DNA of 20,000 nt from IMG/VR virus record IMGVR_UViG_3300043117_000361; one strand, written 5' to 3'. This document shows positions 1 to 18,934 of this stretch, in pieces. A program made the position numbers and the translations under genes. Below the pieces are notes generated by a model, which saw nothing but the letters and a program-made list of their open reading frames with translations, was not told the DNA's origin and did not search any database. Positions within the stretch are counted from its first letter, which is position 1. The number at the start of each line of letters is the position of its first letter. This DNA comes from an uncultured virus (IMG/VR IMGVR_UViG_3300043117_000361) (lineage: Duplodnaviria; Heunggongvirae; Uroviricota; Caudoviricetes).

Positions 1-2
1 TA

Positions 3-233
3 ACGGACCTTGAGCAAGAGAACGAAGCCCTGCATAAAGAGGTCTTGCGGTTTGAACTGGAAAACAAACGCCTGAACGGCCTGTACTGCGAGTTGCTGCA
101 TCAGGTCGAAATGAAGTACTCCGACGAATCCCGTCACGAAACAGCGAAACGGATGTTACGCACAGCCCAGCAAAGTATGGGACCAGCGGCGTCAGTTAAC
201 GACAAATCTCAGATTTTGAGCAAAGTGAAATAA
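3..233 (+). CDS. Phage hypothetical protein, 5'-truncated (coiled-coil N-part; YxELLxxVxxKxxDESRHETA motif)
   Basis: Frame is open from base 3; stop lies inside the attC at 194-253. Confidence 0.7.
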   Translation, partial: TDLEQENEALHKEVLRFELENKRLNGLYCELLHQVEMKYSDESRHETAKRMLRTAQQSMGPAASVNDKSQILSKVK

Positions 234-253
234 TCTGGAACGCCTTGTTGGCG
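194..253 (-). repeat. attC site
   Basis: Minus strand: CGCCAAC-AAGGC-GTTCCAGA...TCTGAGA-TTTGTC-GTTAACT. Confidence 0.8.
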
Positions 254-264
254 CAGGAGATAAT

Positions 265-495
265 ATGAAGGTTGGAACATTCGTAAAGGTGAAAAGTGGG
301 GCGTCTACTTGGATGAAGGATCGCGGCTACTGGATAAATGACTGGCCGGAATCCATTGACGGCATGATAGGCGAAATTACCCATGATTATACTGCGTATA
401 AGGGCGACGATTGCCACTACGAGGTCGCGCTGCCCGGCGTAGACGGGTGCGGGATACATCCGCAATGGTTGTCTGTTACCTCCCGATTCACCTGA
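265..495 (+). CDS. Small hypothetical protein, SH3/KOW-like start (MKVGTFVKVK)
   Basis: RBS AGGAG upstream; 76 aa. Confidence 0.75.
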   Translation: MKVGTFVKVKSGASTWMKDRGYWINDWPESIDGMIGEITHDYTAYKGDDCHYEVALPGVDGCGIHPQWLSVTSRFT

Positions 496-603
496 CGAGC
501 GAAATGGAAGTAAATAATGGATAAGAAACATACACAAACTAACACACAGCAAACATCGACAAACCCGCGCGTCCGTCCGGTCAGGTGCAGCCGGTGGTGT
601 GTT
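473..603 (-). repeat. Degenerate attC site
   Basis: Inner arms TTCACCTGAC / GTCAGGTGCA retained; both cores mutated (TAC, GTG). Confidence 0.5.
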
Positions 604-666
604 CGCGGTGTATGGTTGTATGCGGCGACATGGGATGGTGCAGAGGTAAGGGAGGTTTTAGCATGA
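517..666 (+). CDS. 49-aa hypothetical protein starting inside the degenerate attC
   Basis: ATG at 517; ATGA overlap with the next gene at 663-666. Confidence 0.4.
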   Translation: MDKKHTQTNTQQTSTNPRVRPVRCSRWCVRGVWLYAATWDGAEVREVLA

Positions 667-977
667 ATGAACAAAGCGATCGAATGGATACGGCCTCTAC
701 TGATTTGTTGGTATTTCCGGTTCGGCATCACTTTGACTGTTGGATTGACAGGTGCCGAACATGCCTTGATGACCACCTTGCGCTTGCCGAGTATATCCAT
801 GCGGTAACACAGGCCCCGCGTCAGTACCACGATTTTTTGAGAGAGTACCGGACGTGGCTCGACAGCCACGGAATCCCTGCTGAATCAGAGGACGGATGGG
901 CGACGCGGCAGGCTTGGGACAAAGAGAACGTCCATGCGTTCATTTGGGACGTGTGGGGGGTAGATGCCAACGCCTAA
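663..977 (+). CDS. Hypothetical protein
   Basis: GGAGGT RBS before ATG 663; stop lies inside the next attC. Confidence 0.7.
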   Translation: MNEQSDRMDTASTDLLVFPVRHHFDCWIDRCRTCLDDHLALAEYIHAVTQAPRQYHDFLREYRTWLDSHGIPAESEDGWATRQAWDKENVHAFIWDVWGVDANA

Positions 978-1036
978 ATTGAGTTTTCTGAAAGGAGCGA
1001 AGCGAGTGAAAGATAAATTTAAACGTCTTGTTCGGC
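965..1036 (-). repeat. attC site containing stop, RBS and GTG start
   Basis: + strand TGCCAAC-GCCTAA-ATTGAGT...ATTTAAAC-GTCTT-GTTCGGC; AAAGGAG 991-997, GTG 1006. Confidence 0.75.
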
Positions 1037-1485
1037 ATCTGTCTGCGTGGGCGTGGGCGGATGAGATTGAGACAACGAAACAGGCTGGCGGCGTTCTGCG
1101 CTGGAAGTCGGAATACGATTGGTGGCACTGGTACGTCGTTGAGGTCGGGACGAAAGGTGGACATTGGATTGGAAGTCACGCCGATCCGATGGTCCGAAAG
1201 GCGTGGGATGCCGCAAGGGAACGTATGCCGAACGCACACTTTAGCGGCGCGGTTTCCGCGTCTGTTCCAAGCGATCATTGGGTTTCTTTTAATGTCTGGC
1301 ACGCTGATAGTCACCCACCATTCAGCGCACCTTTGATTTGCAAGGTTCTGCATTATCGCACAGATCGAATAACCGAGGATAAGATGACACTAGAGGAACC
1401 GACCGATCCTCGGTTTTGCTTCTCCAATAACAGCGAACTTGACGAAAGCAAAACTCGTGTTATTGCGTGGAAACTCAATAACTAG
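1006..1485 (+). CDS. Hypothetical protein, apparent fusion of two cassettes through an internal attC
   Basis: RBS and GTG start lie in the attC loop; reads through 1227-1283 as PNAHFSGAVSASVPSDHW. Confidence 0.65.
   Translation: MKDKFKRLVRHLSAWAWADEIETTKQAGGVLRWKSEYDWWHWYVVEVGTKGGHWIGSHADPMVRKAWDAARERMPNAHFSGAVSASVPSDHWVSFNVWHADSHPPFSAPLICKVLHYRTDRITEDKMTLEEPTDPRFCFSNNSELDESKTRVIAWKLNN
1227..1283 (-). repeat. Degenerate attC site inside a CDS
   Basis: GCCGAAC...ATTGGGT; left core ATGCCGAAC is the exact complement of GTTCGGCAT at 1030. Confidence 0.55.
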
Positions 1486-1531
1486 CTCAACTTCGGAGCG
1501 AAGCGGAGTAAGCTGGAGCGCCTTGTTGGGC
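1473..1531 (-). repeat. attC site (family A)
   Basis: Minus strand GCCCAAC-AAGGC-GCTCCAGC...GTTGAGC-TAGTT-ATTGAGT; near-identical to 5088-5147. Confidence 0.85.
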
Positions 1532-1557
1532 GTTCCGTAACATAAAGGAGAAAAGCG

Positions 1558-1776
1558 ATGAACGAAAAAAAGTACATGATTGATGACGAACCGGCCAGCG
1601 CGAATGACATCATTCGCAAGGCGAAGGAACTGGACACGGATTACGGGTCGGACGGCTTCTGTCAGACCAGCGTGGCCGCAGATGTTTTGCAGCGGAACGG
1701 GTTTTCGGTCTGGCACAACCCTGATTATACGCCCAACGCCGGAAGTGACGATCAGAATGAAGGGAGCGAAGAATGA
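1558..1776 (+). CDS. Hypothetical protein (cassette)
   Basis: AAGGAG RBS; C-terminus PNAGSDD... is translated attC. Confidence 0.8.
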   Translation: MNEKKYMIDDEPASANDIIRKAKELDTDYGSDGFCQTSVAADVLQRNGFSVWHNPDYTPNAGSDDQNEGSEE

Positions 1777-1814
1777 GCGAGCGAAATGAGGTAGCGTCCA
1801 CTTCTTTGTTGGAC
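1731..1814 (-). repeat. attC site with ATGA stop/start overlap in its loop
   Basis: + strand GCCCAAC-GCCGGA-AGTGACG...CGTCCACT-TCTTT-GTTGGAC. Confidence 0.85.
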
Positions 1815-1970
1815 GATTTGCGCGACTTGAAGCGCGAACTTGAGGTTGCGAAAAACAGTCAACTGGCTGGTCCGGATGGACGCGCCGCGTTCACATCCTG
1901 CCTTGGGTCTGTGAACATGATTCTCGATAAACACGATACGTCCAACGCAGCAATGACGGGCGGCGAATAG
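1773..1970 (+). CDS. Hypothetical protein (cassette)
   Basis: Starts inside one attC and ends inside the next. Confidence 0.7.
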   Translation: MSERNEVASTSLLDDLRDLKRELEVAKNSQLAGPDGRAAFTSCLGSVNMILDKHDTSNAAMTGGE

Positions 1971-1997
1971 CCGTACCGTCGATTGGCCTTGTTGGGC
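1940..1997 (-). repeat. attC site
   Basis: GTCCAAC..AATGACGG...CCGTCGATT..GTTGGGC. Confidence 0.8.
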
Positions 1998-2024
1998 ACG
2001 TACCGCAAGGCCGGAAAGGACAAC

Positions 2025-2267
2025 ATGAGATCAATTCAGGAAGGCGACATTGTATGTGTTAACTTCAACAATGCACAGTACACGCTTTGCAGTCGGGCCA
2101 AGGTACTACACACGCCCTCGGCAACGGGCGACTCGTGGTACTTTCAGGACATGGAGACAAAAAAAGAATGGGCGGTCAGCGAGGGATGCACGATTACGCT
2201 GATAGAGCCTCATATGCCCAACGCAGAGTTGACCGGATCGAAACAGCCAGAGAAAGGCACAGCATGA
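2025..2267 (+). CDS. Small SH3-like hypothetical protein, TPxATGDSW family
   Basis: AAGGA RBS; similar to the N-half of 3283..3690. Confidence 0.8.
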   Translation: MRSIQEGDIVCVNFNNAQYTLCSRAKVLHTPSATGDSWYFQDMETKKEWAVSEGCTITLIEPHMPNAELTGSKQPEKGTA

Positions 2268-2318
2268 ACCAAACACCGCAAGCGGCTGTTTCGGGTACGG
2301 TCGGACGCCTTGTTCGCC
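2216..2318 (-). repeat. attC site with ATGA overlap in its loop
   Basis: GCCCAAC..GTTGACCG..CGAAACAGCC...GGCTGTTTCG..CGGTCGGAC-GCCTT-GTTCGCC. Confidence 0.85.
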
Positions 2319-2500
2319 CTTCCGGGGTGAGCATTGAGATGATGGAGTTTGCCCGTCCGCAAGACGATGATCTGTGGCACTGGGCAAACAACCTGAACGC
2401 CATGCTGCACTCGGGCTACTGCAAGAAGTGCGGCCTCACGCCGAACGGATGCCGCAACGAAGGCTGTAGGGCTAACGGAAAGGATGACACTCCGAAATGA
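2264..2500 (+). CDS. Hypothetical protein with CxxC...CxxxxC motif (cassette)
   Basis: ATGA-coupled at both ends. Confidence 0.7.
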   Translation: MNQTPQAAVSGTVGRLVRPSGVSIEMMEFARPQDDDLWHWANNLNAMLHSGYCKKCGLTPNGCRNEGCRANGKDDTPK

Positions 2501-2549
2501 GTAAGCGAAGCGCGACGAATGAAGGTAGTTGTCCATCCGCTTGTTCGAC
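2470..2549 (-). repeat. attC site (family D) with ATGA overlap
   Basis: GGCTAAC..GGATGACA...TGTCCATCC..GTTCGAC. Confidence 0.85.
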
Positions 2550-2709
2550 ATGCCCCGCGCTGGAGCTGGTGCGGGCAATCGTCGAGATGACCGAGGGACA
2601 AGCAGACATCGACAAGCGCAGCATTGTGCGCCCCGGCGTTACGCTGGGAAGGGAATCACGCCGCATACTCGCTCGTCTGTCGAACGCCGAGCATGACACT
2701 CGGCATTGA
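2497..2709 (+). CDS. Hypothetical protein (cassette)
   Basis: ATGA overlap; both termini are attC-derived. Confidence 0.6.
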   Translation: MSKRSATNEGSCPSACSTCPALELVRAIVEMTEGQADIDKRSIVRPGVTLGRESRRILARLSNAEHDTRH

Positions 2710-2751
2710 AGCGAAGCGAAAATGACGCAGTTGTCCATGCTTTTGTTGGGC
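2679..2751 (-). repeat. attC site (family D)
   Basis: GTCGAAC..GCATGACA...TGTCCATGC..GTTGGGC. Confidence 0.85.
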
Positions 2752-2770
2752 ATGGACGGGAAGGAAAACG

Positions 2771-2923
2771 ATGAAATTGAACCACTTGATTCTGATAGGT
2801 GACGCGGTGGAGAAAATCCACGAACTGACAAACACAGACATTCCTGACATCGTAGACGCCCTTACTGGTGTTGCTTGGGACGAAGAGGACGCGGGGCAAA
2901 TCAAAGCGTATCACGCTGGCTAA
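2771..2923 (+). CDS. 50-aa hypothetical protein (MKLNHLILIGDAVEKIHEL...)
   Basis: AAGGA RBS; fills the cassette; below the ORF-track length cutoff. Confidence 0.65.
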   Translation: MKLNHLILIGDAVEKIHELTNTDIPDIVDALTGVAWDEEDAGQIKAYHAG

Positions 2924-2931
2924 GATTATAT

Positions 2932-3003
2932 GCCCAATGCAGCGCTCACCGTCGGGGCTCAAGCTCCGAGCGAAGCGAGGTAGATTGAAGCCCTTTGTTG
3001 GGG
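2932..3003 (-). repeat. attC site (family B), apparently chimeric at its left end
   Basis: Body near-identical to 5653-5712; preceded by a GCCCAAT-GCAGC-GCTCACC remnant. Confidence 0.8.
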
Positions 3004-3020
3004 CTGGATTGGAGGACAAG

Positions 3021-3194
3021 ATGACATACGTGAGTGTTGACTACAAGGGCAGAGCGCACATTGCCGACGCGGAATTGCTGGACGACTACAAGGCTGGCGT
3101 GCTGGAGGATGGCGGCGTGCTGCTGCGGATCGACGGCGAGACGGTGAGCCAGTACACGGGCAATGGCGACAATGAATGGGAAGAACTTTACTAG
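3021..3194 (+). CDS. 57-aa hypothetical protein (cassette)
   Basis: GGAGG RBS before ATG 3021. Confidence 0.75.
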   Translation: MTYVSVDYKGRAHIADAELLDDYKAGVLEDGGVLLRIDGETVSQYTGNGDNEWEELY

Positions 3195-3195
3195 C

Positions 3196-3256
3196 CCCAA
3201 ACGCTGCAAAGCAGTCTCGCAGCGGTAGCAAGTAGGCTCGATTTGTCTTGTTGGGT
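3196..3256 (-). repeat. attC site
   Basis: CCCAAAC..AAAGCAGTCT...AGGCTCGATTT-GTCTT-GTTGGGT. Confidence 0.7.
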
Positions 3257-3282
3257 TTCCCAGCAAGGCGGGAAGGAACAAG

Positions 3283-3690
3283 ATGAAAAACAGGATTGAG
3301 AAGGACGACAGGGTGCTGGTGGTTTTCGCCAGCGACGGATCGAGTTTGCGCGGAGTGGTGGACTACACGCCGCAAGCGACAGGTGACTCGTGGGTGATTG
3401 TGCAAGACGATGGCACCGTCAACTATGTTCAGATGTTTGAGACGATGCAACTCGTTGGTAAACCCAACGCTGGCGGTGACGCTTCGGCGTACTCGCCGAT
3501 AGCATCCACTGCTTTGTTGTCTGTCCCGTCCAACACCATTGTGACGTGTGCCAACTGCGGCAACGAGTACGAGGTTCATTACACTGAGCCGTTCGACAAG
3601 GCTGGGGAAGGTAGACGCATCTGCGTGGATTGTTGCGAGGGACTTGGGCCAGAAGACCTGCCATGCGGCATCAGTACAGACAACAACTAG
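3283..3690 (+). CDS. Two-cassette fusion protein: SH3-like ATGDSW domain plus CxxC...CxxC zinc-binding domain
   Basis: AAGGA RBS; internal attC 3462-3522 is translated as the linker PNAGGDASAYSPIASTALLS. Confidence 0.75.
   Translation: MKNRIEKDDRVLVVFASDGSSLRGVVDYTPQATGDSWVIVQDDGTVNYVQMFETMQLVGKPNAGGDASAYSPIASTALLSVPSNTIVTCANCGNEYEVHYTEPFDKAGEGRRICVDCCEGLGPEDLPCGISTDNN
3462..3522 (-). repeat. attC site read through in frame
   Basis: ACCCAAC-GCTGGC-GGTGACGCT...AGCATCCACT-GCTTT-GTTGTCT. Confidence 0.85.
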
Positions 3691-3734
3691 CTCAAGCGTA
3701 GCGAAGCGGAGTCGCTTGCTGCATTTTGTTGGCA
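3678..3734 (-). repeat. attC site (family C)
   Basis: Near-identical to 6495-6553. Confidence 0.8.
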
Positions 3735-3754
3735 ATCTGAATAAGGAGAGAAGA

Positions 3755-3997
3755 ATGAGTGAAATGAATTGGAAGCGATTGAATAAGGAACAACTGGCGA
3801 TACTGGATCACACGGCACACCGGGCCGCTGGTGGGCTGTATTGCGGGGACAGCCCCGACATGCAAAAGCTGATCGAGGCTGGGCTGATGGTGTCGGCGGG
3901 CTGCAAGTCGTTCGTGCCGGATGAGTATTTCCGTATGACGGACAAAGGACACGAAGTGCTGCGGGAAGCATGCCGCCCCAGCTATGGAGGTGAGTGA
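3755..3997 (+). CDS. Small winged-helix-like protein
   Basis: AAGGAG RBS; MQKLIEAGLM...YFRMTDKGHEVL resembles a wHTH C-terminal motif. Confidence 0.7.
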   Translation: MSEMNWKRLNKEQLAILDHTAHRAAGGLYCGDSPDMQKLIEAGLMVSAGCKSFVPDEYFRMTDKGHEVLREACRPSYGGE

Positions 3998-4049
3998 ATG
4001 ACAGTGGAGCTAAGCGTAATTGACAGTATGCTCGATCGTCTTGTTGGCA
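3976..4049 (-). repeat. attC site (left core AGC) containing RBS, stop and start
   Basis: CCCCAGC-TATGGA-GGTGAGT...GCTCGATC-GTCTT-GTTGGCA. Confidence 0.7.
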
Positions 4050-4270
4050 TCATTCGGCGCGAGCAGTTTGACCCAGAGAAGGGGCCTCCTTCGATACGTC
4101 GATTAGCCCGCCTCACGCGCAGGCAGCAGAAGGACGTGCTGGAAGAGTGCGTAGACGCGGACTTGTGCGTAAACATCGGCATCCAGTGTGGTGGCGTGAT
4201 TGGGGTGTTTGATCGCATTGGTGACTACACCGTGGAAGACCTGACGGTAGATTACCAACGCCGAGTGTGA
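3998..4270 (+). CDS. Hypothetical protein (cassette)
   Basis: GGAGG RBS, TGAATG junction; ends in an attC half-site at 4253. Confidence 0.7.
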   Translation: MTVELSVIDSMLDRLVGIIRREQFDPEKGPPSIRRLARLTRRQQKDVLEECVDADLCVNIGIQCGGVIGVFDRIGDYTVEDLTVDYQRRV

Positions 4271-4355
4271 GGTTCAGATATGGGCGCAGTTAAGAAGAAG
4301 TAGACATCGTCACGCGGATTATTTTTTAAATGAATAATGAAGTGAAAGGGATAAA

Positions 4356-4499
4356 ATGGTAAATTCCAAACAATTTATAGCCGTGCGTATAATTATGATC
4401 GCGCTCACATTTCTTATTAACGTAGCAGTTATCGCTGGCGCTGTGTGGCTGGTGGTTAATGTGCTTCAATGGCTTTATATTCTTTTAAAAACCGTATAA
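4356..4499 (+). CDS. 47-aa predicted membrane peptide
   Basis: AAAGGG RBS; long hydrophobic stretch IIMIALTFLINVAVIAGAVWLVVNVL; AT-rich. Confidence 0.6.
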   Translation: MVNSKQFIAVRIIMIALTFLINVAVIAGAVWLVVNVLQWLYILLKTV

Positions 4500-4538
4500 A
4501 ATTAAAAGCCATCCCGTGATCGGGCGCATCTTGGATGT

Positions 4539-4641
4539 TGTGAGCGCCACAAATCAAGGGCAGTTGCCCTAAGGAGTAAACCATGAGTGATGTAGAAAAC
4601 GCGAGCGGGGCGCAAGTACCCACTCAATGCGACTGTTCGGT
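4539..4641 (-). repeat. Degenerate attC containing RBS and ATG
   Basis: GGGCAGTTGCCC...GGGCGCAAGTACCC arms, right core GTTCGGT. Confidence 0.45.
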
Positions 4642-4765
4642 ATTGCGAGCGGCGTTACGCGGGCTGCTTGAATGTCGCTGTGAAGCAAACACCGGACAAT
4701 GTTGCGAGCACGTCAAGGCGGCAGAACAAGCGTTAATGAACAATAAAACAGGAGAGCCAAAATGA
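4583..4765 (+). CDS. Hypothetical Cys-rich protein
   Basis: AAGGAG RBS; ATGA overlap with the next gene. Confidence 0.65.
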   Translation: MSDVENASGAQVPTQCDCSVLRAALRGLLECRCEANTGQCCEHVKAAEQALMNNKTGEPK

Positions 4766-5127
4766 CGGCCAGGCTGACGGTCAAGAAATTGATTACTGAG
4801 TTAATGAGCATGGACCCGGATATGGATGCAGAACGTGCCCTTTCGGATATACGCACCGACACCTTGTTGGGTTTTAACGAGGAAAGTAATGAGATGAATA
4901 TACCATGCGACTGCGGAAATGAAAAAGCGTATTGGAAAGGAGATAGGTGCGGATTGCGAATATACGCCTGTGCAGAATGCCATGCGTACAACAGCGGGCT
5001 TGAAACAGCGGCCGGTCTCATTGAAGAAGGATGCAGCAACGAAGATGATAAAGCTGTGCTGCTTTGCGGAGTTTTATCTTCTAAGAAACTCAACGATCAA
5101 GCTCAGCTTCGGAGCGAAGCGGAGTAA
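4762..5127 (+). CDS. Hypothetical protein with CxC...CxxC zinc-ribbon-like motif
   Basis: GGAG RBS; stop lies inside the attC. Confidence 0.7.
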   Translation: MTARLTVKKLITELMSMDPDMDAERALSDIRTDTLLGFNEESNEMNIPCDCGNEKAYWKGDRCGLRIYACAECHAYNSGLETAAGLIEEGCSNEDDKAVLLCGVLSSKKLNDQAQLRSEAE

Positions 5128-5147
5128 GCTGGAGCACCTTGTTGGGC
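5088..5147 (-). repeat. attC site (family A), textbook architecture
   Basis: Minus strand GCCCAAC-AAGGT-GCTCCAGC-TTACTCCGCTTCGCTCCGAA-GCTGAGC-TTGATC-GTTGAGT. Confidence 0.92.
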
Positions 5148-5588
5148 TTTTAGAGCACGTTGCAATTCAGAGAGGAGCGGGCGCCAGTCTGCTGCGGCGT
5201 CGCCAATCGGCATCAATTCGTCCGGTATGTTGTCCAGGCTTACCGGGAGGCCGAGCGCCTCCTGCAGAGCCAAGGCGGATTCCATAGTATCGAATTCGTC
5301 AGTACCGTCGGCGACGTCGACGTTAGTCCAGTTTCCTGGGTTGAAACTTTCGCCCCATTCCTTACGCATGGCGGCTAGAACCTTCTGTTCAAAGTTCGGA
5401 TCCAGGCGAAAATCGGGCATCACCGGCGGCGTGTAAGTAGGCGCTTGGGGACGCTGTTTTGGGCGTCCGAGTCCCAAAAAGGCCCTCTTCTCAAACACCT
5501 CCGCAAGCCCCTGGGCGTACGCCTGCTTCAGGTGTCCGGACACGTTGCGTTGTTGTGCAACTTTAATTCCAAGTTCATATGGTGTCAT
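5103..5588 (-). CDS. K-x-A-leader protein with an acyl carrier protein-like domain (pantetheine Ser replaced by Glu)
   Basis: AGGAG RBS 7 nt before ATG; GTDEFDTMESALALQEALG aligns by eye to ACP GADSLDTVELVMALEEEF. Confidence 0.65.
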   Translation of the reverse strand: MTPYELGIKVAQQRNVSGHLKQAYAQGLAEVFEKRAFLGLGRPKQRPQAPTYTPPVMPDFRLDPNFEQKVLAAMRKEWGESFNPGNWTNVDVADGTDEFDTMESALALQEALGLPVSLDNIPDELMPIGDAAADWRPLLSELQRALKAQQGAPAYSASLRS

Positions 5589-5652
5589 AACGAGACTCCT
5601 ATTAAAGGTCAAACACGAGCGAAGAATACCACAGGAGGCTGGCGGATGTCAA

Positions 5653-5712
5653 GTTCAACGCCGGGGCTCAAGCTCCGAGCGAAGCGAGGTAGATTGCAGC
5701 CCTTTGTTGGGG
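5653..5712 (-). repeat. attC site (family B)
   Basis: GTTCAAC-GCCGGG-GCTCAAG...ATTGCAGC-CCTTT-GTTGGGG. Confidence 0.85.
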
Positions 5713-5729
5713 CAAAAATGGAGGACAGG

Positions 5730-5921
5730 ATGGACAAGACGGCAGAACTGATTGTTGATGCGATAGTGACCGACTTCACCGACAGGCGCGGGTTGCGGCA
5801 AGAGTGGGAACAGATCGACGAGAAGATTCAGAACGAAATCAAGGGCGAGTGGATGCGCCTTGTGCGCGAGATTCTTGGTCGCCCCAACGCCGGAGTTCAC
5901 ACTCCGAGCGAAGCGAGGTAG
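5730..5921 (+). CDS. 63-aa phage hypothetical protein (DRRGLRQEWEQID motif)
   Basis: GGAGG RBS; C-terminus is attC-derived. Confidence 0.8.
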   Translation: MDKTAELIVDAIVTDFTDRRGLRQEWEQIDEKIQNEIKGEWMRLVREILGRPNAGVHTPSEAR

Positions 5922-5943
5922 TTTGTGAAACGATTTGTTCGGA
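5882..5943 (-). repeat. attC site
   Basis: CCCCAAC-GCCGGA-GTTCACA...TGTGAAAC-GATTT-GTTCGGA. Confidence 0.9.
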
Positions 5944-6034
5944 ATCAGGCACGGGTAGGCAAACCTGACGGGCGTATGGCTGGCTGCTTGGGGTTCGATT
6001 CCCCGATGCCCGTTCCCATGCCGGGGTGCCTGAT
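5944..6034 (+). ncRNA. Putative tRNA-like mini RNA (acceptor stem plus T-arm) occupying a whole cassette
   Basis: CGGGCGT/ATGCCCG stem stacked on TGGGG-TTCGATT-CCCCG; closed by ATCAGGCAC/GTGCCTGAT; no credible ORF. Confidence 0.5.
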
Positions 6035-6113
6035 GCCGAACGCACAAGCTGACCATCAAAAAAGGAGCGAAGTATGAGCGGATTTTTTGTAGCGGTCCAG
6101 CGCCTTGTTGGGC
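6035..6113 (-). repeat. attC site containing RBS and ATG
   Basis: GCCGAAC-GCACAA-GCTGACC...GGTCCAGC-GCCTT-GTTGGGC. Confidence 0.9.
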
Positions 6114-6304
6114 GCATGGTTGGACGCTGTAAATGTGGCAAGTTTGTTCCTAATTGGGGCAAACTCCACGCATCATGTAAGCATGCGGCCCTGAATGGCG
6201 TTGCCATCAGTTTGCCAGCAATACGGTATTGCCCGTGGTGTGGCTGTCGTGTGCCGCCCAATGCCGGAAATCAGGGGCATGTGCCCCAGGGAGAACGATC
6301 ATGA
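6074..6304 (+). CDS. Small zinc-ribbon-like protein (CxC...YCPWCG)
   Basis: AAGGAG RBS in the attC loop. Confidence 0.75.
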   Translation: MSGFFVAVQRLVGRMVGRCKCGKFVPNWGKLHASCKHAALNGVAISLPAIRYCPWCGCRVPPNAGNQGHVPQGERS

Positions 6305-6356
6305 GTAACACGAAACGCACAGCGGGGCACATGTCCCCTGAATTGACTTGTTATCC
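6256..6356 (-). repeat. attC site with ATGA overlap in its loop
   Basis: GCCCAAT-GCCGGA-AATCAGGGGCATGTGCCCC...GGGGCACATGTCCCCTGAATT-GACTT-GTTATCC. Confidence 0.8.
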
Positions 6357-6507
6357 AAAATGCGAAGACTGCCTGCACTGGCGGGACGAGCTATGTCATT
6401 TTGCGTCTCCGTTTTTGGCACGTCGTGAAACGCAACGCAAACGCCCGATCAAGCCAAAAAGCCTGAACTGCGGTATTGAAGGAAAGAACTTTATCGCGAA
6501 CAACTAG
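6301..6507 (+). CDS. Small Cys-rich protein (CxDCxHW...C...CGxEGKNF)
   Basis: GGAG RBS; ATGA overlap. Confidence 0.75.
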   Translation: MSNTKRTAGHMSPELTCYPKCEDCLHWRDELCHFASPFLARRETQRKRPIKPKSLNCGIEGKNFIANN

Positions 6508-6553
6508 CTCAAGCGCGTAGCGAAGCGGAGTCGCTTGCTGCGCCTTGTTGGAG
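6495..6553 (-). repeat. attC site (family C)
   Basis: Near-identical to 3678-3734. Confidence 0.8.
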
Positions 6554-6566
6554 GCGTATATTGACA

Positions 6567-6707
6567 ACTTTGAGACAGGGATCGGGTCGCAGGTTCGAGT
6601 CCTGCCGGACAAGGGCAACGGGACGCCGTTCGCAGCTTTGCCACTGCGTGTGCGCACACGATTGACCGATGCCGGGCGGCATGACTCGTCCCTTTGTCTC
6701 TGAAAGT
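6567..6707 (+). ncRNA. Putative structured RNA with a T-loop hairpin
   Basis: Closing stem ACTTTGAGACAGGGATCGGGTC / GACTCGTCCCTTTGTCTCTGAAAGT; GCAGG-TTCGAGT-CCTGC at 6589-6605. Confidence 0.45.
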
Positions 6708-7031: not shown

Positions 7032-7589
7032 ATGCAGAAGATTATCAGCTTGTTTCAGAGAAATTATGAGACGGATAGACTCGTGAGGGATGAAGTCGTA
7101 CCAGGTGCTGAATGGGTACTGAACGGTGAAGGCACCGCAACTCGGAAGTGGGACGGGATGTGCTGCATGGTGCGTAATGGACAACTGTTCAAGCGATATG
7201 AAGTGAAGCGAGGTAAGGCCTTTCCGCCTGACTTTGAGCCTGCTTGCGATATTGACCCGAATACGGGCAAGCAGCAGGGATGGCGTCCGGTTGGAGACGG
7301 GCCGGAAGACCGCTGGTTCCGTGAAGCGTTTACCGGGGAAGAACCGGACGGCACTTATGAACTGATTGGGCCAAAGGTGCAAGGCAACCCAGAAGGATTT
7401 AACTCGCATACGCTCGTTCCGCACGGTCAGCATCCCGTTGCCGCACCACGCACCTTCGACAAACTGCGGGAGTGGTTCAAGGGACCGGGGAGCGATATCG
7501 AGGGCGTGGTATGGTGGCACGACGATGGACGAAAGGTGAAGATCAAGGCCAAGGACTTCGGGATTCGCCGTGTTGCCAACCAGCGATAA
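7032..7589 (+). CDS. RNA ligase-like nucleotidyltransferase (DUF5565/RLIG1-like)
   Basis: Motif I TRKWDG, III TYELIG, IV EGVVW, V KIKAKDF; AAGGAG RBS. Confidence 0.8.
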   Translation: MQKIISLFQRNYETDRLVRDEVVPGAEWVLNGEGTATRKWDGMCCMVRNGQLFKRYEVKRGKAFPPDFEPACDIDPNTGKQQGWRPVGDGPEDRWFREAFTGEEPDGTYELIGPKVQGNPEGFNSHTLVPHGQHPVAAPRTFDKLREWFKGPGSDIEGVVWWHDDGRKVKIKAKDFGIRRVANQR

Positions 7590-7609
7590 TTAATAAAAAA
7601 GAGCGAAAA

Positions 7610-7906
7610 ATGAGCGAATATTGCAAAAACTGTAAAGAACTACAGGATAAAATAGATAACATTAGAACTATAGTTTCTAATAGAACCATGCTTGAGCAGC
7701 TGGATGCGTTCAAGTTGTACGACGCTTTTCTCACATTAATGTCCGGAATAAATATGTTTTCGGCAGATAATCTGAGGCGCGTTCGTGACGAGATAAAATA
7801 TGTGTCACAATATGAAAATGAGGATGAGCATCTTGTTTATATGGCACGCAGCATTATAGTCGCGCTGGAAACTGAAATAGGCTCACGGAAAGATTGTGGA
7901 AACTAG
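7610..7906 (+). CDS. Hypothetical protein (N-terminal CxxC)
   Basis: ATG 7610 in the track ORF frame; AT-rich. Confidence 0.65.
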   Translation: MSEYCKNCKELQDKIDNIRTIVSNRTMLEQLDAFKLYDAFLTLMSGINMFSADNLRRVRDEIKYVSQYENEDEHLVYMARSIIVALETEIGSRKDCGN

Positions 7907-10627: not shown

Positions 10628-13069
10628 ATGCCTAGTGCTGATGAAGCTCAATTCGAGACCACTTTCTCTAATCTGGCCTATGTACATTTGCGGGACAGAG
10701 CCCCTAAACTTCTTGATTATCTTATTGGTTTTCAGTTGTTAGATAAAAATGAAGATGACACTAAAGCAGCGGGGGTATTTGGTATAAAGATTGAAAAAAC
10801 CTGGCTGTATGTAGTGTCCTTCTTTATCAGGGGAGAGCTTAAAGGCTGTGACAGTATCTATATTAAAAGCAAGAACACAGTAGTTCCCCTGGAGGAGAAT
10901 TGGGTAAACTATATTTTATCCCGCAAACCTTCGGTCATGGGAGGCCCAGACGAAACCACTATGAGCGACCTAGCCAAATATGAGCCGTCTTTTAATGAGT
11001 ATTTTGACAGTCCGTTCTCAAAAAACTCGTTTTGTGAATATGACGGTACAGATAATGTATACGGGAAATGCCTGATAGGCAGTAAATTTGACATAAGACC
11101 TTGTCTGCCATTATTTTATGCGTCTCCCAATTCTGAAATATATAAAAAATCCGCAGAAAGAACTAAATTGGCCTCTGTTGTCAGGGAATACGGCGAATTT
11201 CCTCTTAAAATAGTCGCAAACACCATACGTGAGAACAAAAAGTTTGCTGATTTGATGAAAGAGCACATACAGGCCGATGATTTGGTTTATGACGATGTAT
11301 CGTCTGAAAATAAGAAAGAACTGCGGCCGCCATCTGATGACGAGCTTAAAGAAAAGGACATAGACAGGGCTTTGTTTAACTATTATGTACGCAATATAGC
11401 TGCCAGGGGGTTCTACAGGGGAGCCCGTCCTGTAGGGGATGTCATAGACTTGCTCAAATCACGTGGAATAAACAATGCCAACGATCTGAGAAACAGATTG
11501 AGCATGATTACTGTGGCTCCTTTGAATCCGGCTTTAAGAAAAGTTTCCTCAAAAGACGACACGAACAGCAGGATAACGGTTGTTACAGACAGTAATGCCG
11601 ATCTGGTAAACAGGGATCTTACCAGAGAGCACAGAGAGGATCTGGTCAGAGAGGGTTTCACTTTTATAGACAAACGGGCATCTTCTAATGTGTCTACAGT
11701 TCTTCCAAGAAACGGATCCTCGGCAGTGGCCACTCCTACAGACACCGGATTTTATTCAGTGTTTGGCGATGATGGGGTTTTTCACGACTGTTTTATTATA
11801 AATGGTGGATTCGATTTTCACAGCGGTGCCACTGAAAATCTTTGTATTATAGATGTTAATACAAAAAAGGATATGATAGTGGATCAGGGTTCAGTTCTTG
11901 CAACACACGATTATCCGGATCTGTCTCTGAGCAAGGTATTTACAAAAGTTAAAAAAGAGAATATGGTTACGGGAAACGTTTATTTTTTTAAGAAAGGAAA
12001 CAAATTCAGTTTACCGTTTAACTATATAGGAAAAAAGAAGGGCAATATTGTAGCTGTTTTAAGATCCGGGTTAAATGTTTCTTATCCTGTAAGCGACAGT
12101 CCTCCCCACGAGCGTCTTCATATTAATACAGAGAAGCTTCCAGAGTCTTTAAAATATCTTAATCAACATGTGTTTATACCGGGAAAGACGGCGTCATTTG
12201 TAGTTAACTCCGCCGGATGTTTTATCCCTGATGATGTAGAAATATACAAAATTGCCAAGCCTTCTAAAGATGAAGTACTAAGCTGTGAAGGTGCCAGAGA
12301 CTGGTATCCGGGCGATATAGACTGTTTCGAGGCTCATCTGATAAAATCAGCAGGTCTGGTTCCTGTTACTGTCATGGCCGACTACAGGCAGTACAGGTTT
12401 CCCGACAGTCCTGACATATACGGTCGTAAAAGTATGGTCTCAGAGCTTATGACATCTTACGGACTCAGTAAAAATGCGGCTCTAAGTATACTTAATGAGG
12501 CCGATTCCAATAAATTTCATTCCGTGTTTGTTAAAACTGCTGTCCCATACGCTGATGCAGGTATTCCTATAGCACCTTCCACGAATATTCCTGTGTCGGC
12601 AGCTGATTCCATGGTAGGGGTCCCTCCCGGGGTTATGGGCGTGGGTCCATCCAGTAAGACTATGATGGTTCCAGGCCAGATGAAGGCTACCCCAAGCGAC
12701 TATAACGTGTTGGACGATAAGGACGTACAGACTATATTCCAGCTGGCTCAGACCGGTGAAAAAGAAGTTATGGATACCGGAATCATGGCCAGTCTTATTA
12801 AGACCATGGATATATCAAGCGCCATAAACAAATATATATCGGATCTCATGGTAGGCCTGGACAGGCTGGGCCGTATACTGATTATGTTTTATTGGCATAT
12901 AGATAAATTTGCGGAAACGTATGGTGAAGAGGAACTTACAGAGCTTGAAACCTCTATTAAAGACGGTTTTTCAAATCTTGGAAATCTTGTACTGTTTCTT
13001 AAAAAGAAGGAAATAGACAATGATTTTGACATTCTTGGAGGTTCATCAGGGCTGGAGGCAGATCTTTAA
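10628..13069 (+). CDS. Large phage protein, putative virion/head-associated
   Basis: 813-aa ORF, first gene of the protease operon, several K-x-A motifs; function inferred from context. Confidence 0.75.
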   Translation: MPSADEAQFETTFSNLAYVHLRDRAPKLLDYLIGFQLLDKNEDDTKAAGVFGIKIEKTWLYVVSFFIRGELKGCDSIYIKSKNTVVPLEENWVNYILSRKPSVMGGPDETTMSDLAKYEPSFNEYFDSPFSKNSFCEYDGTDNVYGKCLIGSKFDIRPCLPLFYASPNSEIYKKSAERTKLASVVREYGEFPLKIVANTIRENKKFADLMKEHIQADDLVYDDVSSENKKELRPPSDDELKEKDIDRALFNYYVRNIAARGFYRGARPVGDVIDLLKSRGINNANDLRNRLSMITVAPLNPALRKVSSKDDTNSRITVVTDSNADLVNRDLTREHREDLVREGFTFIDKRASSNVSTVLPRNGSSAVATPTDTGFYSVFGDDGVFHDCFIINGGFDFHSGATENLCIIDVNTKKDMIVDQGSVLATHDYPDLSLSKVFTKVKKENMVTGNVYFFKKGNKFSLPFNYIGKKKGNIVAVLRSGLNVSYPVSDSPPHERLHINTEKLPESLKYLNQHVFIPGKTASFVVNSAGCFIPDDVEIYKIAKPSKDEVLSCEGARDWYPGDIDCFEAHLIKSAGLVPVTVMADYRQYRFPDSPDIYGRKSMVSELMTSYGLSKNAALSILNEADSNKFHSVFVKTAVPYADAGIPIAPSTNIPVSAADSMVGVPPGVMGVGPSSKTMMVPGQMKATPSDYNVLDDKDVQTIFQLAQTGEKEVMDTGIMASLIKTMDISSAINKYISDLMVGLDRLGRILIMFYWHIDKFAETYGEEELTELETSIKDGFSNLGNLVLFLKKKEIDNDFDILGGSSGLEADL

Positions 13070-13893
13070 TGGCAAGAGAAAGAATACGCAGACGAGATAA
13101 AAATCCTTTAAGAGCTCCTGACTGGAGATGGGTTCTTGCTAAAAATGCCGCTAACGGCTATGTTAATTCCAGAGGTCTCGACCGGAGTACAGGAATGGCT
13201 TTTAAGTTTATACGCTTTTTAAAAGAGTATAAGGCCAAGGTGGAACAAGGGAACTACAAGCATATGGACAGTTCCTTTATTTTTACCAAATATCCGAGCA
13301 TGCACCAGGCATACACTCTGTTTACTGCGGATAACTATATGAAATGGGCCGTTGAAGCCTATATAATAGCCGGGGCTCCAAAAAAGACAATAGCGGAAAA
13401 GACCGGATGCGATGTTGCCGGTGTGTCTCTCTATGAGGATGTGTTCTATGATATACGTGACAGGCTTAAACACCCTCTCTATGTTATTCAGGAGGTTCTA
13501 ATGCCTGTTGCCGGTGATGATACCAGCAGAGGTGACTATAATTTCCTGTGGAAAACTGTAGCGTACTATTGTGATACAGCGGTTTTAGAGGAGTTTATAA
13601 GTAATGCACCTCTGTCTACAAAGGTTAAAGAGACAATATATGAGCTGTTTGAAGGTCAAATTACCCGTCAGGCTCTTCTTTCTGCCTTTACCCGGTTGCC
13701 GTCTAAGTATACGCATCATGATATAGTGGAAGAGTACGCTGTATTTACGGATAAAATGCGTAATAAAGAGGGTGCAGCTTCCGGAAGTGTGGATGAACAG
13801 GTTAAGAGTCTGGTGGATGGTATATCTTTGGGATTGGCACAGTTAGATAAAACTGGTAAACTAGGTAAAGTTGAGAAACAGGTTTCTTTATAA
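13069..13893 (+). CDS. Phage hypothetical protein
   Basis: 274 aa; TAATG overlap. Confidence 0.8.
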   Translation: MARERIRRRDKNPLRAPDWRWVLAKNAANGYVNSRGLDRSTGMAFKFIRFLKEYKAKVEQGNYKHMDSSFIFTKYPSMHQAYTLFTADNYMKWAVEAYIIAGAPKKTIAEKTGCDVAGVSLYEDVFYDIRDRLKHPLYVIQEVLMPVAGDDTSRGDYNFLWKTVAYYCDTAVLEEFISNAPLSTKVKETIYELFEGQITRQALLSAFTRLPSKYTHHDIVEEYAVFTDKMRNKEGAASGSVDEQVKSLVDGISLGLAQLDKTGKLGKVEKQVSL

Positions 13894-13906
13894 AAACAGG
13901 TTGATT

Positions 13907-16387
13907 ATGGATTTATTAAGCTATTCTGACGAGACTCGTATATTCAAGGCAGCGCAGGCCGCTTTGAGGGAAGCAGGCAGTGGTACTGATCCTTCGGAGG
14001 CGGTTGCTAAATACGCTACAGTCTATAAACTGGTTCCTGAAATGACTAAACGGGCTGTAGAGGCCTTTAACGTTTCCAGGACTGCTAATCATCTTAAAAC
14101 GGCTCCCGCCATAAAGAAAGCTGAATCAGTGGATTTAGCGGATACTGAGTCTGTTTTTTCTATTATGTATCCTTCTACCGTCAAGACTCCTTCTGTTGAG
14201 ACGCATAAGTCTGCTCTGTTTTCAGACACTCATGATACAATATATTATGACGAACCGGCTCCTGAGACTATTAAAGGGGATCTATCTGCTAAGTCATTTA
14301 CAGACACTCCCGATGCCGACTGGTTCCAGGCTCTCAGAGAGACTGAGCATATCAAGGCTGCGGCCGGCATAATAAAGGATAAAAAGGCTGAAATACACTA
14401 TAAGCTTGTTAACGCGATACAGGACGCTGTAGACTATTTTCGTCCTGTTGATGCTGAGAGCTTTTCAAAGTGCGCAGATTACGTCATGCGTAAAACAGCT
14501 AATAATGCTTTTCCTCTGCTTAATGAGGTGTATGAAGAGTCTAAACTCGGCGAAGTGGGCCGGGCATGGGAAGCAGCGGATAAGTTCAAATCTGTTGGTA
14601 TAGAGAAACTTGCAGAAGCCTTTGAATACGAGATAGATACTCCGACTGAGGGTATTAAGAAGCTGGCAGGTATTGTTGAGCTTGCACGTCAATACTGTAA
14701 AATATCGTCTGTAGACACGGTAGCCTCTAATGATGCTGGTAATTTTGAGGAAGTTTTTGATATGAAAAGCAAAAAACTTCTTAAAAAAAAAGCTTTTATT
14801 CCTTCCAGTATAGTAGGAGGGGTGTATAAAAACCTTCCAATTTTGAATGCGGTAAGCAGTATCGGCCAGGGTTTGACAGATAAATATAGTCTATCTGGTG
14901 AGGACATAGAGGATGTATTCGCCTCATCTGTTACTTCGGGGGTACGGGATACTGAAAACAACATTAGAGCAACTATGCTTTTAAATGATTTCCTGCGTAA
15001 CGATGAGGTTCTGTCTGCTGCTCCTCCTGAAGAAGTTGTCCGTTATTTTAATAAGCTGATGGAATCGTATCCTGATCTTTTAAAGGCTCCTATGGTTGTT
15101 AAATCTGTTATCAGGAAAGCAGTGGAATCCGGTGGTCTGGATATGTATGATCTTTCCAGCGTAGGCAGTATGGCTTCCGATGTAGCCAAGACCGAACGCG
15201 ACAAGGAAAGGAATATTATTGAGAAGGCTAAAGTTCGTAAAGAGGTATACGACAAAAAAGAGCCTATGAAGATAGACGTCAATAATTATATTCCTAAAAA
15301 AGAGCCTATGAAGATAGACGTCAATAATTATATTCCTAAATCAGAAAAACCACCAAAGGATAAACCAGAAGATGAATCAGGTGGCAAATCAGACGACAAG
15401 ACAAAAGAAGGACCTTTTGGGCCTGTGTCGACTATATTCGTAAGGCCTGATCTCAATACAAAAAGTCTTCCTGTTTATGGTACTTATGGTGAGCCTTTAG
15501 GTCTCCCCGCTCCAGATACTGATGTTCCGTTAAGCGGCAACACAGGTACATGGCATCGTGGCAGCAGTACTGCTTCTTCATCTGATAGAGCGCCTACTGA
15601 CAGGGACATACTGGATTTCATGGAATGGACCGGTCTGGGCAAAGAAGGGTCTGCCAATGAACATCTCGGCATAAGTAAAGATGCCTCTAATCTGGCTGAA
15701 AGTTTTATTAAATCCTCTAACAAAGTAACAGAAAAACTGGAAGAACTGGCCGAAGATCTGAAGGGTCGGGCAGTTACATTTAAGGATCTGCTCATGTCTG
15801 AACAGGTTCTTCCTTATCTTACAGGAGCGTCTATAGGCAGCTTAGGGGCTGGAACCTATGGGTATATGTCTTCAGATAAGATAGGGAAGGACAGACTCAT
15901 GGAGGCGGTTAGAAAAGCTCTAATGGGTTCCGCAGCCGGTGCTGCCGGCGGCCATTTGTATAAGCATCTGGCTGTTCAGGACAAAAACCACGACATTGAA
16001 GAGTCGCCGTCAGTGAGTGTACATACCGATGTCGACGAGGTTACACAGCCGCGCAAAACAGTAAATCCAAGAAATATTAAAATGGTTCCTAAAAGATTGG
16101 ATCTAGATCAGCGCAGTGAGGGGAGTAGTGCCACTATATGGGATATGATCAGACGGATGACTGGTTTTGGTCCTGAGCCTATAATGGAGTACGAACCAGC
16201 TCCATATACTCCTGGTTTCTTTGAGTCTATTGGAAATTTAATTAAGGTTGATGATCCGTCCAGTGTCAATATCAATGATCCAGCTGACCCACCTGTAGAG
16301 CTGCTTTGGCCGAAATATACCGATACATATAAAGAATTTGCTAGAGACCTTGCTATCAAAGCCCGGGAACAGGAAGAGTGGTTATGA
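13907..16387 (+). CDS. Large K-x-A-rich putative virion (internal head) protein
   Basis: ATG 13907; many K-x-A motifs; Gly/Ala-rich helices GASIGSLGAG, GSAAGAAGG. Confidence 0.75.
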   Translation: MDLLSYSDETRIFKAAQAALREAGSGTDPSEAVAKYATVYKLVPEMTKRAVEAFNVSRTANHLKTAPAIKKAESVDLADTESVFSIMYPSTVKTPSVETHKSALFSDTHDTIYYDEPAPETIKGDLSAKSFTDTPDADWFQALRETEHIKAAAGIIKDKKAEIHYKLVNAIQDAVDYFRPVDAESFSKCADYVMRKTANNAFPLLNEVYEESKLGEVGRAWEAADKFKSVGIEKLAEAFEYEIDTPTEGIKKLAGIVELARQYCKISSVDTVASNDAGNFEEVFDMKSKKLLKKKAFIPSSIVGGVYKNLPILNAVSSIGQGLTDKYSLSGEDIEDVFASSVTSGVRDTENNIRATMLLNDFLRNDEVLSAAPPEEVVRYFNKLMESYPDLLKAPMVVKSVIRKAVESGGLDMYDLSSVGSMASDVAKTERDKERNIIEKAKVRKEVYDKKEPMKIDVNNYIPKKEPMKIDVNNYIPKSEKPPKDKPEDESGGKSDDKTKEGPFGPVSTIFVRPDLNTKSLPVYGTYGEPLGLPAPDTDVPLSGNTGTWHRGSSTASSSDRAPTDRDILDFMEWTGLGKEGSANEHLGISKDASNLAESFIKSSNKVTEKLEELAEDLKGRAVTFKDLLMSEQVLPYLTGASIGSLGAGTYGYMSSDKIGKDRLMEAVRKALMGSAAGAAGGHLYKHLAVQDKNHDIEESPSVSVHTDVDEVTQPRKTVNPRNIKMVPKRLDLDQRSEGSSATIWDMIRRMTGFGPEPIMEYEPAPYTPGFFESIGNLIKVDDPSSVNINDPADPPVELLWPKYTDTYKEFARDLAIKAREQEEWL
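15254..15340 (+). repeat. Perfect 42-bp in-frame tandem duplication (KKEPMKIDVNNYIP x2)
   Basis: Directly visible in the sequence. Confidence 0.95.
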
Positions 16388-18589: not shown

Positions 18590-18934
18590 ATGCGTGCAGC
18601 ACATTTTTCTAGGCTCAATTCGAGCCGCACAGATAGGGAACTCACAGAGGCGAAAAAAATGGGACTTTCTGATGTTGTCCCATGCACCCTGTGTCCCCGA
18701 GACCCCGACGGGTACGTGGCCGTGATACTGGACACGTGCTCCAGAGGGTTTAAAGGTGTCTTTGATGCAATTCTGCTCAAAGACTGCAGCCCGGCGGAGC
18801 TCAGCAAACTGATCCGGGCCAGCAAACAGGAACGGGAAGGGAAAACCATTCCCGTATTCTTATGGGACCCACACGAGAAGCAGTGGTGTTCCATCTGTGA
18901 ATTAAAAAATAGGAGGTACCATGAAGACCTATGA
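18590..18934 (+). CDS. Hypothetical protein
   Basis: GGAGGT RBS. Confidence 0.7.
   Translation: MRAAHFSRLNSSRTDRELTEAKKMGLSDVVPCTLCPRDPDGYVAVILDTCSRGFKGVFDAILLKDCSPAELSKLIRASKQEREGKTIPVFLWDPHEKQWCSICELKNRRYHEDL

Follow-up and report, generated by a model that had tools for sequence, protein, structure and literature searches.

A phage attC array with genes flipped relative to the recombination sites, locked in one reading frame and probably coupled in translation

Introduction

A window of 20,000 nucleotides from an uncultured Caudoviricetes virus (IMG/VR record IMGVR_UViG_3300043117_000361) opens in a dense array of attC sites, the recombination sites of integron cassettes, and in this array stop codons, ribosome-binding sites (RBS) and start codons lie within or close to the sites themselves. 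The locus thus raises the question of whether a site at which cassettes are exchanged can also end one gene and start the next. A first-pass annotation, made from the sequence alone, had proposed that it can: the sites would be inverted relative to the genes, each cassette would carry its attC at the 5' end of its gene, supplying its own RBS and start and the stop for whichever gene lands upstream, and any shuffled order would remain a coupled operon. We find it probable that the locus is a phage-type integron array with genes flipped relative to attC, locked in frame and translationally coupled, and the flipped array itself is real and widespread beyond the window. Phage attC arrays were already known, whereas the flipped, frame-locked design is undescribed as far as our literature searches reach: no description of flipped genes relative to attC in phages, or of the frame rule, was found in the open-access literature, from which subscription papers are mostly absent.

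Results

The window is part of a linear virus record of 111,747 bases that is 57% complete, found in sequencing runs labelled oil field metagenome, no RNA run being listed among them, and the array spans window coordinates -2712 to 6553, with 30 intact sites within 9.3 kb. Sites were detected by a pairing scan followed by a profile trained on the window sites, which is circular for the window; with this profile nothing scored above 18.2 elsewhere on the contig or on the opposite strand. All 30 intact sites show the same layout on the + strand: AAC, about 6 nt, an L box, a loop, an L box with an extra base, about 5 nt and GTT. These are the elements of attC, with inverted R'/R'' and L'/L'' boxes, 6- and 5-nt spacers and an extrahelical base on one strand, and the layout corresponds to the attC aadA7 bottom strand shown in the supplement of PMC9892861. 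An independent profile, built from nothing but 181 bacterial sites whose open reading frames (ORFs) are normally placed, recovered 14 sites on the + strand of the array, none on the - strand and none in the other 102 kb.

The attC crossover, G/TTRRRY in the top strand (the slash marks the point of exchange), reads RYYYAA/C at the 5' start of the site on the gene strand, in agreement with the proposal that each cassette bears its attC at the 5' end of its gene. By their sequence, the 30 intact sites all have their recombining (bottom) strand on the same strand as the genes, opposite to the arrangement in bacterial cassettes. In the canonical layout the ORF lies on the attC top strand with attC at the 3' end of the gene, whereas here 29 of the 30 junctions have bottom-strand genes, the sole cassette of canonical orientation in the array being the antisense one that runs 5588->5103. 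As a same-strand cluster of attC sites without a nearby intI, the array classifies as a cluster of attC sites lacking integron integrases (CALIN); intI and attI do not adjoin it on this record, so it is not a complete integron. The array and the gene beyond its end contain the following features, in window coordinates.

1..6553, +: in-window part of the flipped attC array, which continues upstream to -2712
194..253, +: attC (bottom strand on +); the upstream gene ends inside it (NDKSQILSKVK, then stop)
965..1036, +: attC; stop of ORF 663-977 at +6, RBS and GTG 1006 in the loop
1006..1485, +: ORF that starts in attC 965, reads the decayed site with AAC 1231 in frame and ends in attC 1473
1473..1560, +: short attC with conserved leader, RBS and ATG 1558; the module recurs on unrelated genes in other contigs
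1731..1814, +: attC; tail NAGSDDQNEGSEE then stop, RBS, ATGA overlap at 1773
1940..2027, +: short attC with leader to ATG 2025; tail NAAMTGGE, then stop
2025..2267, +: gene of a small phage-type family, used below to compare the tails of homologs
2216..2318, +: attC; ATGA overlap at 2264
2470..2549, +: attC; ATGA overlap at 2497
2679..2751, +: attC; tail NAEHDTRH, then stop; next start at 2771 in the leader
2932..3023, +: attC with leader and ATG 3021; the upstream gene has its own stop at 2921-2923
3196..3256, +: attC; the upstream gene has its own stop at 3192-3194
3283..3690, +: fusion ORF of a paralog of the 2025 gene and a Cys-rich part, with attC 3462-3522 as in-frame linker; ends in attC 3678
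3678..3734, +: short attC; tail NN, then stop; next start at 3755 in the leader
3976..4049, +: attC with core AGC; TGA-ATG at 3995-4000
4253..4325, +: decayed site without its right core, entered by ORF 3998-4270 in the -1 frame
4539..4640, +: decayed site of the 6256 attC family; RBS and ATG 4583
4735..4872, +: decayed site; in-frame entry at AAC 4739, ATGA overlap at 4762
5088..5147, +: attC; tail NDQAQLRSEAE, then stop; the antisense gene also stops inside it
5103..5652, -: antisense cassette gene (ATG 5588, 161 aa) with a sigma-70-like promoter at 5652-5623; normal cassette orientation
5653..5732, +: attC with leader and ATG, 90% identical to 2946-3023
5882..5943, +: attC; tail NAGVHTPSEAR, then stop
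6035..6113, +: attC; RBS, ATGA overlap at 6074
6256..6356, +: attC with core AAT; ATGA overlap at 6301
6495..6553, +: last intact attC; tail NN, then stop
7032..7612, +: RNA-ligase gene; ends at the in-frame AAC 7578 in a decayed left arm with RBS-ATG

Open-frame length and RBS motifs served to call the genes, and the frame in which they enter a site is far from arbitrary. The longest incoming open frame was the one that reads the core AAC as a codon (the AAC frame) at 26 of 30 sites (binomial p 2e-9), compared to 47 of 123 other AAC triplets in the array region. All 25 genes that cross an intact site read AA/C as an Asn codon and none does so in another frame, two of the 25 being short (24 and 39 codons); at the remaining five sites, four upstream genes stop just before the site and one cassette is antisense. 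Between 965 and 6356, where the annotation had described entry in the same frame with AAC as Asn, 14 of the 17 intact sites are crossed in frame with AAC, AAT or AGC as the codon, the core at 6256 being AAT and not AAC; genes stop before sites 2932 and 3196, and at site 5653 the incoming cassette is the antisense one. The six tails and three heads that had been called stereotyped all occur in the translations, but only the first two or three tail residues (P/S/A-N-x) are stereotyped.

The next start lies inside the site at 12 of the 30 sites, comprising seven ATGA overlaps, one TGA-ATG, two starts within 11 nt of the stop, one 29 nt apart and one in-frame fusion. The ATGA overlaps annotated at 1773, 2264, 2497 and 6301 and the TGAATG at 3995-4000 are present in the sequence and in the ORF tables, as are the RBS and starts in the loops at 993-1008 (GTG 1006), 4571-4585 (ATG 4583) and 6062-6076 (ATG 6074), and ATG 6074 proved to be a further ATGA overlap. 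The proposal that the site itself supplies RBS and start holds for only some of the junctions: among the 17 sites of 965-6356 it does so at seven, whereas at eight a conserved RBS-ATG leader holds the start, 15-35 nt past the site, one site being read through and one followed by the antisense cassette. Two intact sites of the array are read through as fusions. The long sites, folded as RNA, are predicted to form hairpins, in most of which the start is in the loop or close to it.

To place the array among relatives, pattern and integrase searches of viral contigs yielded 254 loci, which after removal of repeats and edges gave 323 sites in 109 loci, with genes judged by open-frame length. The incoming frame was the AAC frame at 220 of these sites, the -1 frame at 55 and the -2 frame at 18, with none at 30, so that the frame of entry is not random across related genomes either. 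Most -1 cases (38/55) end at the core's own TAA, and at the 205 sites that lack this TAA the AAC frame accounts for 172 and the -1 frame for 17. The opposite strand was flat (89/81/82), the AAC frame was the majority in 47 of 51 loci with at least three sites, and control AAC triplets within the same viral arrays were in frame in 712 of 2255 cases. In a separate metagenome set for the window's own site families (99 loci), 54 of 65 sites were entered in the AAC frame and only 10 had ATGA, because those sites are short.

In-site starts in the other phages were counted from the stop; a strict RBS filter (23 found) undercounts them. The first stop was an ATGA at 139 viral sites in the AAC frame versus 30 and 32 in the other two, and at 97 versus 27 and 25 among 254 distinct site types (similar sites collapsed). 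Of the 139 ATGA starts, 119 run 30 or more codons beyond the site, compared to 497 of 969 for any frame. At the 220 in-frame junctions the next gene begins at an ATGA in 86, within -20..+10 nt of the stop in 44 and later in the site in 19; it begins behind the site in 42, no start was found in 18 and 11 are read through. At the other end of the site the exit frame varies (63/34/22), which fits a constraint on the crossover end alone.

As a control, the same motif was searched in bacteria, where at least 148 loci were found; the bacterial counts in this report refer to 253 sites in 100 loci among the matches listed. The longer ORF was on the top strand at 206 of 253 bacterial sites and on the bottom strand at 217 of 323 viral sites (Fisher p 1e-32). 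Because bacterial sites defined by the same motif show the normal orientation, the gene flip is a viral trait in this sample and the strand call is correct, as the annotation had held. A core TAA is present at 218 of the 253 bacterial sites versus 97 viral ones; among bacterial sites without it the AAC frame was used at 6 of 20, and ATGA in the AAC frame occurred at 12 bacterial sites, nine of them in three Verrucomicrobia loci (L146, L138 and L177). Separately, L146, a normal array on a Verrucomicrobiae chromosome, has a phage-type ATGA at the bottom-strand AAC-frame stop in 6 of 18 sites, where no use for it is expected, and L138 mixes normal and flipped cassettes.

These counts bear on a simpler explanation, which we consider unlikely although it is the best of the alternatives: the cassettes are flipped, but the frame merely ensures that a stop is near and the tail harmless, or has simply been inherited as a convention, and ATGA reflects ordinary phage packing. 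It would account for the fact that in the AAC frame 307 of 323 viral sites contain a stop, versus 247 and 200 in the others, for the roughly 40% of junctions without a near overlap, and for phage PH101, where a flipped attC-leader-ATG module is accompanied by non-coding gaps and no read-through. However, the -1 frame usually meets a stop sooner (median tail 4 codons) and yet is rare at sites without the core TAA, for which reason coupling is favoured over mere termination, and the enrichment of ATGA in the AAC frame is about fourfold even among distinct site types.

If cassettes are exchanged at AA/C, homologous genes should part company there, and they do. Six cassettes of five phages contain a methyltransferase body of 472-475 nt between their sites. 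Its neighbours differ and its six tails diverge right at AA/C; the body has no start of its own before the first conserved strand. Among the best 120 of 2599 homologs of this protein, 109 have the C-terminal motif, 43 of these 109 carry an xN tail after it (42 of the 43 at the same position), and many of the other 66 stop within a few residues of the junction. One ancestral capture could be the source of these xN tails. In the 2025-gene family the PN tail is missing in 21 of 22 homologs, and the closest (90%) shares PN and then continues into a different tail; the RNA-ligase gene at 7032 has a 59% homolog that is a cassette in locus L029, joined at the same codon. Members of the 1473/5088 site family are found in 10 other contigs; flanked by different genes on either side, they are near-unchanged from the C of AA/C through leader, RBS and ATG, and one attC family is preceded by 12 upstream genes. 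To judge from these sequences, AA/C of R' is the exchange point, where homologous bodies end and tails change; that the tails of relatives change exactly there is what the annotation's idea of a tail supplied by the next cassette predicts, and (P/S/Q)N tails are common in the protein databases, where it had suggested looking for them.

Cassettes of the array in a new order were sought in the 99 metagenome loci without any match of at least 100 nt; only attC-leader modules and two gene bodies matched. Three assembly joints considered as rearrangements were rejected, since they match site copies just upstream of the window; some loose assembly ends are further copies of the window's site families on other contigs. 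Elsewhere, locus L001 (2015-2629, -) holds an in-frame fusion through a whole attC, with phrog_24212 beginning right behind the site.

Integrases were found in relatives of the array. In the integrase-positive array-bearing records intI lies at the downstream end of the array (in G009, across contig ends). A scan anchored on intI covered 57 of 70 viral loci (near-full-length matches, with some duplicates): 28 of the 57 have sites on the 5' side of intI whose bottom strand coincides with the intI strand, an arrangement shared by 96 of 101 sites, the other five lying elsewhere. Just before intI an attI-like motif (AAC-A-NN-GATT-like) is present in 29 of 48 distinct loci, compared to 62 of 1391 background windows, three of the hits looking spurious; a long frame reaching this motif does so in the AAC frame (10) or with a stop at the core TAA (9) in 19 of 20 cases. 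Related phages combine intI with catalytic motifs, a candidate attI and attC sites opposite intI, as in a complete integron. The catalytic motifs of viral IntI are kept. A quick unrooted tree with 63 rows places 21 viral proteins, 19 of them with arrays, in one branch (SH-aLRT 99) that contains none of the 12 bacterial rows; six other array-bearing rows fall elsewhere, and a single origin of all flipped arrays was not supported, since the tree needs seven label changes. In three loci (L279, L292 and L323) the final frame upstream of intI terminates next to a possible intI start or overlaps it, an arrangement that may couple the integrase gene to the newest cassette. An attI at the end of the window array was considered and not supported, 6971 and 7578 being decayed left arms only.

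Together with the breakpoints, this context weighs on a second alternative, a distinctly improbable one, in which the sites are attC-derived repeats that now act like the promoter early stem-loops (PeSLs) of T4-type phages, regulatory modules shuffled by homologous or illegitimate recombination without an integrase. Near-identical modules through ATG do sit on unrelated genes, decayed sites retain RBS and ATG, intI is missing from our record and from most array-bearing records, and an integrase-free state may hold for this array today. Set against this, the upstream breakpoints fall at AA/C, the repeat edge, and are not scattered inside the repeat, the L and R boxes and extrahelical bases are kept, and half of the viral intI loci have arrays in integron geometry next to an attI-like site. 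Nor do the array sites each carry a sigma-70 promoter as PeSLs do; promoter-like hits in 8 kb numbered 10 (5.3 in shuffles), three of them on the + strand and none recurring in the sites.

The last alternative, wrong strand or gene calls that turn ordinary cassettes or terminators into apparent read-through tails, draws on the fact that genes were called from open-frame length and RBS motifs and that most have no family, and is largely refuted by the frame survey, the bacterial-trained profile and the database tails, by the normal orientation that the same detector returns in bacteria and in TJE1, by homology that fixes strand and frame of the methyltransferase, RNA-ligase and 2025 families, and by the methyltransferase body without its own start, so that it can practically be set aside.

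The surroundings of the array differ from it in composition. Its GC content is 54%, versus 42% elsewhere on the contig, which suggests a block acquired from elsewhere, and the array may now be a partly frozen, horizontally acquired block. Most array genes have no protein family; no related viral locus was found for ORF 1006, and the sole homolog of ORF 6074 is itself. The antisense 161-aa gene has no Pfam or PHROG family and no paralog on the contig; its promoter-like motif matches 10 of 12 positions, and transcription of this cassette would run against the array. A truncated copy of a repeat-protein gene adjoins the 5' end of the array, other members of that family lying at -4081..-2858, at 19834-21503 and at the contig start. 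An AT-rich insert flanked by two decayed sites holds a 46-nt piece (4470-4515) that is an 89% inverted copy of 13192-13237, coding sequence of the backbone gene 13069-13893. Directly after the last intact site, 6571-6610 is a tRNA-like fragment (GGTTCGAGTCC arm); ARAGORN called no tRNA in the window, this stretch included, and Rfam gave no match in the window. Downstream, the backbone (10628-17826 and 18921-19286) encodes large proteins without a Pfam family, one protein of the Cas_VVA1548 family and one with a weak match to a head-maturation-protease PHROG.

Discussion

A cassette of this type consists of the C of the core, attC, an RBS and start in the loop or leader, the gene body and a terminal RYYYAA; it starts with attC and ends with its gene because the crossover RYYYAA/C lies at the start of the site. 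Most genes lack a stop of their own: their bodies finish in ..AA, which the C of the following site completes to an Asn codon, and translation continues for 2-20 codons into that site before stopping. In long sites the stop often overlaps or adjoins the next start (ATGA), and in short sites the start lies in the conserved leader. With few exceptions the gene bodies finish in one common frame and the sites offer a stop in it, so any cassette can follow any other. This order rule fits most junctions, so the annotation's claim that every order remains a coupled operon needs qualifying for the two fusions and the antisense cassette. We propose that a ribosome finishing the tail would unfold the hairpin's left arm in the mRNA and begin again at the overlapping start codon; one transcript from a phage promoter would carry the whole array towards intI as an operon, and selection for such reading would maintain the frame convention. 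In related phages the array lies upstream of an attI-like site and a co-oriented intI, whose product would act on the sites; for shuffling in our record, the integrase would have to come from the host or be encoded in the 43% of the genome that is missing. Termination-reinitiation is suggested by two papers, which describe coupling of ORF-11 and relief of the attC hairpin by translation (PMC8876359) and polar effects of untranslated stretches (PMC11511950).

Several observations tell against the phage-type integron array so described. Of the seven decayed or half sites, kept outside the main counts (at about 663, 1231, 4257, 4543, 4739, 6971 and 7578), four are entered in frame, two by no gene, and one, AAC 4257, by ORF 3998-4270 in the -1 frame; at 4539-4640 the core AAC has become AGC and no gene enters. 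At site 965 the stop is 29 nt ahead of the start, and only 130 of the 220 in-frame viral junctions have a start -20..+10 nt from the stop. Our record, at 57% completeness, has no tyrosine recombinase match (PF00589, TIGR02249), nor do four related records, and of 48 array-bearing viral records just 2 reach the TIGR02249 cut-off, one more scoring 180 bits, below it. No rearranged forms of the array were present in four DNA assemblies, whose contigs drop rare variants. According to PMC11511950, removal of attC in normal cassettes usually changes downstream expression little. Finally, a pair of bodies 90% identical has 5' sites only 72% identical, and identical attC sites also stand ahead of unrelated bodies, the change falling at the right core or ATG. 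Because of these last switches, exchange is not confined to AA/C and there must be a second type of join, at gene 5' ends, for which top-strand recombination or microhomology at RBS-ATG would be candidates.

A further possibility, which we hold only tentatively, is that phages run an integron system of their own, with a viral IntI branch, their own attI and flipped, frame-locked cassettes coupled to intI, and so act as a cassette factory. A portable attC-RBS-ATG module would be placed before ordinary phage genes, whose last codons would be joined in frame at AAC; whole attC units would pass to host chromosomes, where some normal cassettes would keep the phage-type ATGA, as in the six of 18 sites of L146. 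De novo cassette formation would then be directly observable. Independently of this, the arrays offer a testable handle on the long-open question of where integron cassettes come from, because the cargo consists of ordinary phage genes with free-standing relatives ending a few codons from the junction and because one attC-RBS-ATG module sits on many unrelated genes. The layout is a third one for integrons, common in environmental phages, with a recombination site that doubles as a translation cassette; gene order, protein ends and fusions could be shuffled without breaking expression if coupling operates, and the layout accounts for a widespread group of odd N- and C-terminal extensions of viral proteins.

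Phage attC sites have been studied before. In PMC9892861, 17 phage CALINs are described, IntI1 recombined five sites, and two PH101 sites were recombined by IntI1 as the folded bottom strand; the flip is not mentioned in its text. When we checked the arrays of that paper, TJE1 was normal, MW202573 and PH101 were flipped and Rctr41k was of the inverted-integrase type. The available passages of PMC13323075, PMC13366799, PMC8352920 and 10.1101/2022.02.06.479319 contain nothing on flipped genes. According to another report, attC inserts at GWT genome sites (10.1101/2022.09.11.507474). Pseudoalteromonas phage H101 (L506), a cultured phage, repeats a flipped attC-leader-RBS-ATG module at 995-1105 and 2396-2506 without read-through tails, and Virus Rctr41k (L503) has an integron integrase annotated xerD with three attC-like sites downstream, in the inverted-integrase layout.

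The array shares with integron arrays and CALINs (PMC9892861; PMC4889954) the R and L boxes, the extrahelical base, the G/TT (AA/C) crossover and short ORFs between sites and, in related phages, an intI opposite the attC top strand; unlike them, it has genes on the bottom strand, transcribed towards intI, and a site that heads the cassette and is translated. With inverted-integrase integrons (Treponema type; PMC4889954, PMC13323075) it has in common that intI and cassette genes are co-oriented; in that type, however, intI is flipped, lying on the attC top strand, and genes are normal relative to attC, whereas here genes are flipped, the intI-attC relation is normal (96 of 101 sites, as above) and intI is downstream. 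ORF-11 across attI1 (PMC8876359) likewise spans the crossover, terminates at a stop that the incoming cassette provides and is coupled to the gene after it, but it is a leader peptide at one site, while here cargo genes do so at nearly every junction in one shared frame; as with the short ORFs in attC of the same paper, translation through the site would relieve the hairpin. Like the PeSLs of T4-type phages (PMC2839356), the modules are repeated and intergenic, with an upstream stop, hairpin, Shine-Dalgarno sequence and start, and accompany modular shuffling of phage ORFans, but PeSLs carry promoters and recombine by homology, whereas here attC has a fixed breakpoint and, in relatives, integrases nearby. 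Lastly, in engineered coding attC one sequence is both coding sequence and recombination site, and the present array would be the natural counterpart of such linkers built for domain shuffling, with read-through fusions at 3283-3690 and at 11 of 220 viral junctions.

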